64,000 bases of DNA from NCBI RefSeq assembly GCF_056746865.1, contig NZ_CM163382.1; one strand, 5' to 3'. The position numbers were made by a program. This document shows, piece after piece, positions 12,601-15,600 of this stretch. Position 1 is the first letter of the stretch. The number at the start of each line of letters is the position of its first letter.

Positions 12601-15600
12601 ACTATGTGATTCAAAGCGTCATCGCATAAACCACTACATCTTGCTCCTGTTAACCCGCTATCATTACCGTTTTCCTCCAGCGGGTTTAACAGGAGTCCTC
12701 GCATGAAATACATTGGAGCGCACGTTAGTGCTGCTGGCGGTCTGGCAAATGCCGCAATTCGCGCCGCCGAAATCGACGCAACCGCGTTTGCCTTGTTCAC
12801 CAAAAACCAACGTCAGTGGCGTGCCGCACCGCTCACGACGCAAACCATCGATGAATTCAAAGCCGCCTGTGAAAAATATCACTACACATCGGCGCAAATT
12901 CTTCCCCACGACAGTTATCTGATTAACCTCGGACATCCGGTCGCTGAAGCTCTGGAAAAATCGCGCGATGCGTTTATAGATGAAATGCAGCGTTGCGAAC
13001 AGCTGGGGCTTTCTTTGCTCAACTTCCACCCTGGCAGCCATCTGATGCAGATTTCAGAAGAGGATTGCCTTGCGCGTATTGCCGAATCCATCAACATTGC
13101 GCTGGATAAAACTCAAGGTGTGACAGCGGTGATTGAAAACACCGCCGGTCAGGGCAGTAACTTAGGGTTTAAATTCGAACATCTCGCGGCGATTATCGAC
13201 GGCGTGGAAGATAAATCCCGCGTCGGCGTCTGCATTGATACCTGCCATGCTTTTGCTGCCGGGTATGATTTGCGTACTCCAGCCGAATGCGAGAAAACGT
13301 TCGCGGATTTTGCCCGTATTGTCGGCTTTAAGTATCTGCGCGGGATGCACCTTAACGATGCGAAAAGCACCTTTGGCAGCCGCGTTGACCGCCATCATAG
13401 CCTCGGTGAAGGCAATATCGGTCATGATGCGTTCCGCTGGATCATGCAGGACGACCGTTTCGACGGCATTCCGCTGATCCTTGAAACCATCAACCCGGAT
13501 ATCTGGGCAGAAGAGATCGCCTGGCTGAAAGCGCAACAAACTGAAAAAGCGGTAGCCTGAAGATGAACAACCGGGAGAAGGAGATCCTTGCAATTTTACG
13601 GCGTAACCCGCTGATTCAGCAGAACGAAATTGCTGATATGCTGCAAATCAGCCGTTCGCGCGTTGCGGCGCATATTATGGATTTAATGCGCAAAGGTCGA
13701 ATTAAAGGCAAAGGTTACATTCTCACCGAGCAGGAATACTGCGTAGTGGTGGGGACAATCAATATGGATATTCGCGGGATGGCGGATATCCGTTACCCGC
13801 AAGCGGCTTCTCATCCCGGTACCATTAATTGCTCGGCAGGCGGCGTTGGACGCAATATCGCCCACAATCTGGCGCTGTTAGGCCGCGACGTCCATTTGCT
13901 TTCAGTGATTGGCGATGACTTTTATGGCGAAATGCTCCTGGAAGAAACGCGCCGCGCCGGCGTGAATGTCTCCGGCTGCGTTCGTTTACATGGTCAAAGC
14001 ACATCGACGTATCTGGCAATTGCCAATCGAGACGATCAAACCGTGCTGGCGATTAACGATACCCATCTGCTGGATCAGTTGACACCGCAACTACTGAACG
14101 GGTCGCGCGATTTACTTCGTCATGCGGGCGTGGTACTGGCTGATTGCAACCTGACAGCCGAGGCGCTGGAGTGGGTCTTTACCCTCGCTGATGAGATCCC
14201 GGTGTTTGTCGATACCGTTTCAGAATTCAAAGCGGGCAAAATCAAACACTGGCTGGCGCATATTCACACCCTGAAACCCACTTTACCGGAGCTGGAAATT
14301 TTATGGGGACAGGCGATCACCAGCGATGCTGACCGTAATGCCGCAGTGAATGCGTTGCATCAGCAAGGCGTTCAGCAACTGTTTGTTTATTTGCCCGATG
14401 AGTCAGTTTATTGCAGCGAAAAGGATGGAGAGCAATTTTTGCTGACCGCGCCAGCGCATACGACAGTAGACAGTTTTGGTGCTGACGATGGTTTTATGGC
14501 GGGCCTGGTATATAGCTTTCTGGAGGGAAACAATTTCCGTGACAGCGCCCGTTTTGCGATGGCCTGCGCGGCAATTTCACGCGCCAGCGGCAGCTTAAAC
14601 AACCCTACCCTGTCTGCCGATAACGCGCTGTCATTAGTGCCAATGGTGTAACAATGTTGCCGGATGCGACGCTTAACGCGTCTTATCCGGCCTACAAATC
14701 AGGCAATTTCAGCAAGTAAATGTAGGCCTGATAAGCTTGCGCATCAGGCAATGACACTCAAGCTAAACCAATAAAGAACCCGGCAATGGTCGCACTCATC
14801 AAGTTGGAAAGCGTCGCCGCCGCCAGCGCGCGTAAACCAAGCTGGGCGATTTCCGGCGCACGGTGTGGCGCAACCGCAGAAAATGCGCCAACCACCACCC
14901 CGATAGAACCAAAGTTAGCGAAACCGCACAACGCGAAAGAAATAATCGCCACGGTTTTAGCATCCAGAGTGCCAGCTGTTTGCAGATAAGGTGAGAAATT
15001 GAGGTAAGCGACAAATTCATTTATTGCCAGCTTCTGTCCAATCAAACTCCCGGCAAGATTCGCATCACTCCAGTCAACCCCCATCACCCATGCCAGTGGA
15101 GCCAACAGGTAACCTAAAATGGACTCCAGCGAGGCATGTTCAAAACCAAACCAGCCGCCAACGCCGCCGATAATACCGTTAATCAACGCAATTATTGCAA
15201 CAAATGCCATCACCACTGTCGCCACACCTGCGGCGATTTTCAGCCCGGTCATTGCCCCTGTAGCGGCGGCTTCAATAATGCTTTTTGGCGGTGTTTCGGT
15301 GAAAGAGAGGTTATTAAAGGAAACCTGCGAAGATTCCGTAGCCGGGCTTAACAGGCGGGCAAACAAGATCCCGCCGGGGATCGCCATTAACGATGCCGCT
15401 AGCAGATATTCCACAGGCACGCCCAGTGCGGCGTAACCAATCATTGTCGAACCAGCAATCGAGGCCATGCCACTACAAATAGCCGTAAATAATTCATTGC
15501 GATTCAGACGATCGATAAAGGGTTTGACGATTGCCGGAATTTCGTTTTGCCCGAGGAAAATGGTAGTGACCGCGACGAATGACTCAATCTTGCTGATATT

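Follow-up and report, generated by a model that had tools for sequence, protein, structure and literature searches.

The 73-nt spacer between yeiH and nfo, the gene for endonuclease IV, in Escherichia coli carries a long hairpin that, according to folding predictions, probably silences translation only of transcripts reading in from yeiH. The helix is conserved in Enterobacteriaceae, its two arms co-evolve, and transcription of nfo starts inside its loop. With moderate confidence, we regard the hairpin as a fold-back insulator, that is, a filter that would let nfo be translated or not according to the promoter of origin of the RNA. The analysis was based on a 64,000-nt stretch of an E. coli chromosome (RefSeq assembly GCF_056746865.1, contig NZ_CM163382.1; referred to as the window), in which positions 8801 to ~16200 are co-linear with the register of K-12 MG1655 and K-12 coordinates (NC_000913.3) equal window positions plus 2238137. 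The yeiH coding sequence (CDS) lies on the plus strand at 11580..12629 in the list of open reading frames, identical to its coordinates in the K-12 annotation; it ends with the stop codon at 12627-12629 (plus strand) and, as the upstream gene, is the source of any read-through RNA. The nfo CDS follows on the same strand at 12703..13560, with its ATG at 12703. The spacer is single-copy and was found in 5425 of 5426 complete E. coli genomes, with 100% identity in 5298 of the genomes carrying it, and the yeiH-nfo locus is syntenic across Enterobacteriaceae. The hairpin occupies one place per genome, unlike repetitive extragenic palindromic (REP) sequences or other dispersed palindromic repeats, which are present in many copies.

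The hairpin consists of a 5' arm, CTCCTGTTAACCCGCT (12644..12659, plus strand), a 19-nt loop (12660..12678, plus strand) whose length and sequence differ among relatives, and a 3' arm, AGCGGGTTTAACAGGAG (12679..12695, plus strand). The 5' arm holds the anti-Shine-Dalgarno motif CTCCT, and the last five bases of the 3' arm are the nfo Shine-Dalgarno sequence AGGAG (12691..12695, plus strand), 7 nt upstream of the ATG. The arms form 16 Watson-Crick pairs (9 G-C and 7 A-U), interrupted by a single bulged U, and the pair G12643-U12696 may close the stem in addition; a repeat search splits the inverted repeat at the bulge into 13 nt and 8 nt. An earlier note on this DNA had described an inverted repeat of 16/17 bp between the yeiH stop and the nfo start, closed at its 3' arm by the only Shine-Dalgarno-like sequence upstream of the nfo ATG, and both points agree with what is seen here. 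That note had also suggested computing the folding energy of 12640-12700. The RNA fold of these 61 nt reached -25.8 kcal/mol, compared with -9.3 +/- 2.3 kcal/mol for 200 dinucleotide shuffles of the same segment (z = -7.3), none of which folded as well, and the fold of the longer segment 12630-12720 was dominated by the same hairpin at 12644-12695. Raw folding energy by itself was dropped as a measure of rarity because 41 regions of the window fold equally well (<= -25 kcal/mol in 61-nt windows). A long single helix is nevertheless rare in DNA of 50% G+C, with ~10 comparable inverted repeats in 64 kb, several of which are terminator- or REP-like. A search of the hairpin with the Rfam covariance models returned two chance-level matches (E = 4-6), far under the gathering scores.

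The nfo promoter is built into this structure. The -10 hexamer TATCAT (12659..12664, plus strand) spans the junction between the 5' arm and the loop, its first T being the last base of the arm, and the arm itself falls within the promoter spacer, at -25 to -10 from the start site. The hexamer is nearly invariant in the alignment of relatives, as TAT(C/G)AT or TATACT. Further upstream, a marbox-like site for SoxS/MarA/Rob, ATCGCATAAACCACTACAT (12621-12639, plus strand), with 2 mismatches to AYnGCACnnWnnRYYAAAY, overlaps the yeiH stop and the -35 region and ends 18 bp upstream of TATCAT; the motif alone occurs at chance frequency within the window, and the non-coding part of the site, CACTACAT, is kept in many Enterobacteriaceae. 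Class II promoters of SoxS, MarA and Rob are said, after work by Martin et al. in 1999, to have a forward marbox that overlaps the -35 region and is 18-19 bp from the -10 on its upstream side, and nfo was reportedly assigned to this class; the predicted marbox, 18 bp before the -10, has the geometry of that rule. Regulation of nfo through a marbox by SoxS is also stated in the literature (PMC2989944), and a peak of sigma-70 holoenzyme in systematic evolution of ligands by exponential enrichment (Shimada et al. 2014) lies within the yeiH>nfo spacer (PMC3946193).

Published transcript ends place the start of nfo transcription between the two arms. In the SMRT-Cappable-seq supplements of Yan et al. 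2018 (PMC6131387), a primary 5' end is listed at NC_000913.3:2250806 on the forward strand in both growth media, with a transcript that covers b2159|b2160 (nfo-yeiI) and ends at 2252832. This start converts to the G at window position 12669 (plus strand) in the hairpin loop, and a possible convention error of +/-1 nt leaves it within the loop. A transcript starting inside the loop had been postulated in the earlier note and now has a published counterpart, and an nfo start upstream of 12644, which would have spoken against the proposal, was not found; the only start found there is that of yeiH, at 2249699 (= window 11562), whose transcripts are listed for b2158 only, i.e., as monocistronic (PMC6131387). 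The supplements of Ettwiller 2016 have no entry for the yeiH-nfo locus. Since transcription starts at 12669, between the arms, the native nfo mRNA lacks the 5' arm. It contains the 3' arm only, as its nucleotides +11 to +27, and formation of the helix is thus limited to RNA begun upstream of 12644, in practice read-through from yeiH. The transcript that starts in the loop includes, together with nfo, the yeiI CDS (13563..14651, plus strand).

Folding predictions suggest that the two kinds of RNA differ strongly in the accessibility of the nfo ribosome site. In RNA with the 5' arm, AGGAG is predicted to pair with upstream bases with a probability of 0.99, a value matched by 1% of shuffles. The ribosome site (-18 to +12 relative to the ATG) has a predicted ensemble opening cost of 18.9 kcal/mol in the read-through RNA versus 9.0 kcal/mol in the native mRNA, an extra cost of 9.9 kcal/mol, and the native mRNA has no significant fold (z = -1.3). 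Over 31 Enterobacteriaceae, the predicted means are 18.9 kcal/mol for read-through and 7.6 kcal/mol for native RNA. When genes of the K-12 region were ranked by this cost, with the same 120-nt upstream context for all, nfo came second of 53, and the 52 others averaged 10.1 +/- 3.5 kcal/mol. The K-12 starts of ccmA, yejB, and yeiH (L210/L211; 120 nt upstream) also have predicted opening costs like that of nfo, at 18-20 kcal/mol; yejB directly abuts the yejA stop, and translational coupling is the likely explanation for its value.

For comparison across species, we sampled 80 Enterobacterales nfo loci among the matches listed, 8 further loci obtained via protein clusters, and a small number found by scanning metagenomes for the nfo start pattern. 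The metagenome scan returned mostly non-enterobacterial loci, and L087, L111, L166, L168, and L178 were used from it. Of the 41 Enterobacteriaceae spacers examined, 40 have a helix of 14-26 pairs around the -10 and the start site. In these 40 spacers, the helix ends at points ranging from 10 nt upstream of the nfo ATG to 3 nt inside it, and in the family the innermost unpaired loop measures 4-41 nt. Between the yeiH stop and the helix lie 0 to 41 nt (median 13 nt), and for this reason the helix is anchored to the promoter and ribosome site of nfo rather than to the yeiH end. In most Enterobacteriaceae, the Shine-Dalgarno sequence was sequestered more than in shuffled controls, whereas other families showed no such excess.

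Because of indels and register shifts, the hairpin is poorly described by fixed alignment columns. An alignment-free arm-swap test was applied, in which the 5' segment of each species was paired with the 3' segment of every species by RNAduplex. Native combinations of 31 sequences averaged -25.5 kcal/mol versus -22.5 kcal/mol for swapped ones, and after collapse to 19 lineages the difference had p = 4e-5. With 28 lineages, the values were -26.3 kcal/mol for native and -22.9 kcal/mol for swapped arms (z = -6.5; none of 100000 permutations as extreme). The two arms thus co-evolve, through register shifts and paired indels. Individual cases of compensation were found in L111 and L166 (GTTAAGCCGC/GCGGCTTAAC, and also CCGG/CTGG), in L087 (TTCCTCCTG/CAGGAGGAA), in Shimwellia (CCTGTCAAACCCGC/GCGGGTTTGACAGG), and in Entomohabitans, which has ATCTCT/AGAGAT where others have CTCCTG/CAGGAG. 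Moreover, the helix of Citrobacter and Kluyvera (TATACTC/GAGTAT) and that of Cedecea (GCTATC/GATAGC) continue through the -10.

The loci outside Enterobacteriaceae bear on the origin of the hairpin. The outgroups Edwardsiella and Serratia instead have a canonical terminator-like site between yeiH and the nfo promoter, a contrast in favour of the insulator reading. In Edwardsiella (L063 1408-1438; L074), this yeiH terminator has the arms CACCCTGTTAACC/GGTTAGCAGGGTG, followed by a T-run. These arms resemble the arms CTCCTGTTAACC/GGTTTAACAGGAG of the E. coli hairpin, which suggests descent from a terminator, and the Yersinia sequence ACCGCTATCA...AGCGGTTATCAAAGGAG is visibly related to the upper stem of E. 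coli. In view of such sequence resemblance, a yeiH terminator may have given rise to the hairpin of Enterobacteriaceae; the loop would have come to hold the -10 and start site of nfo, and the stretch leading up to the ATG would have taken the place of the U-tract. Conversion of a probable yeiH terminator by Enterobacteriaceae into a hairpin whose loop holds a promoter, so that translation of a core gene of oxidative-stress repair depends on the promoter of the RNA, is a tentative scenario to which we give a little less than an even chance. Sequestration throughout Enterobacterales was considered and rejected: pairing of AGGAG with pyrimidine runs, seen by eye in many Serratia, Morganella, and Photorhabdus, was not enriched relative to shuffled upstream sequence outside Enterobacteriaceae. 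Weak pairing across an extended -10 (TGcCATAAT) was observed in the 60 nt before the ATG in Yersiniaceae, Pectobacteriaceae, and Erwiniaceae (L034-L060); native pairs averaged -11.4 kcal/mol versus -9.9 kcal/mol for swapped ones (p = 8e-4, uncorrected for relatedness). Serratia oryzae provides an example, with 12 bp of pairing across the -10 (CCTGTGTGTATC/GATAACACAGG).

Several observations weigh against an insulator that acts by covering the ribosome site. The earlier note had named a lack of covariation as evidence against the stem, and here the outcome was divided: column-wise covariation, in both MAFFT and Infernal alignments, was no better than in shuffled controls, while the alignment-free arm-swap test was significant. 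The core ACCCGC/GCGGGU is uninformative for covariation because it is nearly invariant. In addition, 79% of the alignment cells are paired, and the lower helix, which contains the Shine-Dalgarno pairing, reaches only 67%. The Shine-Dalgarno sequence of Pluralibacter gergoviae is not sequestered (P = 0.11). Citrobacter and Kluyvera have neither AGGAG nor CTCCTG and yet retain the helix, which ends 4-6 nt before the ATG. In Intestinirhabdus, the arrangement is broken by an insertion of ~270 nt, and Intestinirhabdus alba is the sole spacer among the 41 without it. The comparison of plus- and minus-strand folds was not significant (17/28, p = 0.15), for which reason the assignment to plus-strand RNA rests on context; a count of 40 G-U versus 24 A-C cells did not identify the strand either. 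Finally, the nfo start site comes from one dataset only and lies 4 nt past the -10 hexamer, which is unusually close.

Two of these exceptional spacers have further features of their own. In the Citrobacter and Kluyvera loci (L004, L006, L012, and L014), the 30 nt before the ATG contain no recognisable Shine-Dalgarno sequence (GGCGGGTTTAATTTATG), and a T-rich tail follows the rebuilt helix. The insertion of Intestinirhabdus alba (L205 1230-1500) is G+C-rich and highly structured, and lies between the conserved 5' arm and promoter on one side and the nfo start on the other.

We propose that the hairpin would act as follows. The nfo promoter, a known target of activation by SoxS, with the marbox-like site over its -35 region and TATCAT as its -10, starts transcription at 12669 and gives an mRNA with the 3' arm only, in which the Shine-Dalgarno sequence is expected to be free; SoxS-driven nfo mRNA would then be unaffected by the helix. 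A polymerase arriving from yeiH would copy both arms, and the resulting 16-bp helix, ending 7 nt before the ATG, would bury AGGAG and block the 30S ribosomal subunit. A ribosome terminating at the yeiH stop would probably leave the helix unmelted, since the stop is 14 nt before the helix, a distance at which opening is not expected given the known reach of the ribosome. The coupled yeiI would probably be silenced alongside nfo on the read-through RNA. The untranslated nfo-yeiI RNA might be exposed to Rho-dependent termination and decay, and the helix might be left as a protective 3' end of the yeiH mRNA. The benefit could be that nfo remains under its own control, independent of YeiE and of yeiH expression.

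In the main alternative, the helix would act chiefly for yeiH, either by terminating its transcription or by stabilising its 3' end against exonucleases, and the overlap of the helix with the nfo Shine-Dalgarno sequence would be a side effect of fitting promoter and ribosome site into 73 nt. This explanation, which is compatible with an insulator, seems rather unlikely to us. The helix is positioned directly 3' of yeiH, the transcripts from the yeiH start are listed as monocistronic, T-rich tails follow the stem in several relatives (e.g., AGGAGTTTTTTATG and GGGTTTAATTTATG), the canonical terminator of Edwardsiella has arms like those of E. coli, and Citrobacter retains the helix without a Shine-Dalgarno sequence, all of which would fit a role in yeiH expression. 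However, the E. coli stem is followed by TCCTCGCA, which has no T-run. Compared with intrinsic terminators, the stem is adequate (16 bp, 9 G-C), whereas the 19-nt loop is outside the range of 3-8 nt and the U-tract is absent, and a terminator scan gave no match at the hairpin. The first 8 nt past the stem contain anywhere from 0 to 7 T in relatives, so that the T-run is not a conserved feature, and the Term-seq supplements of Adams et al. 2021 contain no yeiH or nfo entry and no 3' end for either gene. The anchoring of the helix to the nfo -10 and ATG also argues against a function for yeiH, as does the promoter inside the loop, which lengthens the loop and would weaken a terminator. A terminator role is not supported for the E. 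coli hairpin, which may have weak or accessory activity of this kind. Hence the dual role suggested in the earlier note, terminator of yeiH and translational gate for nfo, was upheld only in its second half: as far as sequence and public data allow, the predicted pairing of the Shine-Dalgarno sequence, the start in the loop, the predicted opening costs, and the co-evolution of the arms are all in favour of a gate, and the missing T-run, the 19-nt loop, and the empty terminator scan speak against a terminator in E. coli.

Two further explanations dispense with a helix that functions in RNA. If the helix were a neutral relic of an ancestral yeiH terminator, its arms would be constrained separately, one as promoter spacer and the other as ribosome site. 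Such a relic would be consistent with the non-significant column-wise covariation, the invariant core, and the lower-stem mismatches in some lineages. On the other hand, the arm-swap test found coupled change of the arms, promoter spacers and a 5' untranslated stretch such as +11 to +22 are not normally conserved, and Citrobacter, Cedecea, Entomohabitans, and Siccibacter have each re-formed the helix from other sequences; we consider a relic improbable. The inverted repeat could also act as DNA, either as a regulator site with two half-sites or as a cruciform controlling the enclosed nfo promoter, which we judge very improbable. Strong sequence conservation of both arms, the flanking of the -10 and start site by the arms, and the roughly equal stability of plus- and minus-strand folds would be expected under this explanation. 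Nevertheless, the arm spacing varies, and not by whole helical turns, with loops of 4-41 nt and insertions of up to ~40 nt; this variability disfavours a protein-binding palindrome of fixed geometry. The arms moreover change in register, with paired insertions and G-U pairs, and the loops are long for cruciform extrusion. To our knowledge, no regulator with such a half-site is known.

Other features of the window include yeiE, upstream of yeiH on the minus strand (10600-11481), and a 15-nt inverted repeat, CTTATCCGGCCTACA / TGTAGGCCTGATAAG (14682-14735), which directly follows yeiI and has a REP-like look. The nfo-yeiI transcript has its published 3' end (2252832 = window 14695) where CTTATCCGGCCTACA, the 5' arm of this post-yeiI repeat, ends. 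The window segment 12400-12900 is 100% identical to strain 118UI. At 16230-17560, ~1.3 kb absent from K-12 is inserted in rihB. The insertion contains two overlapping open reading frames, 16308-16634 (108 aa) and 16631-17521 (296 aa), that match models of IS3-family transposases, and its size and the lengths of the reading frames would fit IS629. Between ~50000 and 53500, the K-12 register shifts by ~1.2 kb, as would be expected if the window lacked the IS5 copy by which yejO is interrupted in K-12; the window is thus not K-12 DNA.

The insulator reading would have consequences beyond this locus. nfo is a textbook member of the SoxRS regulon, and, if the reading is true, a spacer of 73 nt keeps it tied to SoxS despite a same-strand upstream gene without a canonical terminator. 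Fold-back inhibition of the transposon type would then also be used by housekeeping genes. Its signature would be simple, namely a hairpin that encloses a transcription start and has the ribosome site in its 3' arm, and compact same-strand spacers could be searched for it genome-wide. Furthermore, neglect of the 5' arm could make nfo reporter fusions and operon predictions misleading. We found no description of the yeiH-nfo hairpin and no specific account of the nfo promoter in the literature searched, which did not extend to the 1988 nfo sequence and the SoxS footprinting papers, where an early mention of 'dyad symmetry' is possible.

The closest parallels are found in insertion sequences. 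In IS10 and IS50, transcripts from outside the element fold over the ribosome site of the transposase gene, while transcription from the promoter of the element itself begins within the structure. Such fold-back inhibition, acting on read-through transcripts, is reportedly the subject of papers on IS10/Tn10 and IS50/Tn5 by Davis, Simons & Kleckner in 1985, Krebs & Reznikoff in 1986, and Schulz & Reznikoff in 1991. The nfo hairpin has both structural hallmarks, an inverted repeat whose 3' arm covers the ribosome site and a native promoter that starts inside the structure, and a silent outside RNA is predicted for it as well. In contrast to the transposase genes, nfo is a core chromosomal DNA-repair gene under SoxS, the outside is a conserved neighbour, yeiH, and the -10 hexamer lies at the top of the 5' arm. 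Since it is not part of a mobile element, the nfo hairpin would work like this family without being a member of it. IS200 is likewise protected from incoming transcription and also has its Shine-Dalgarno sequence sequestered by an inverted repeat, but it uses two separate hairpins for this, the sequestering one being in the native 5' untranslated region, whereas nfo has a single hairpin that the native mRNA escapes. Like intrinsic terminators, the nfo structure is a stable stem-loop right after a stop codon, and outgroups have a terminator-like site there; unlike them, it has a 19-nt loop, no U-tract, and a promoter start in the loop. Intercistronic stem-loops of translationally coupled genes, as in RNA phages and ribosomal protein operons, also pair a downstream ribosome site with upstream sequence in a polycistronic RNA. 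At nfo, however, the distance between the yeiH stop and the helix suggests that a terminating ribosome would not open it. By analogy with insertion sequences, from which this type of mechanism is already known, the nfo hairpin would be a modest new example.

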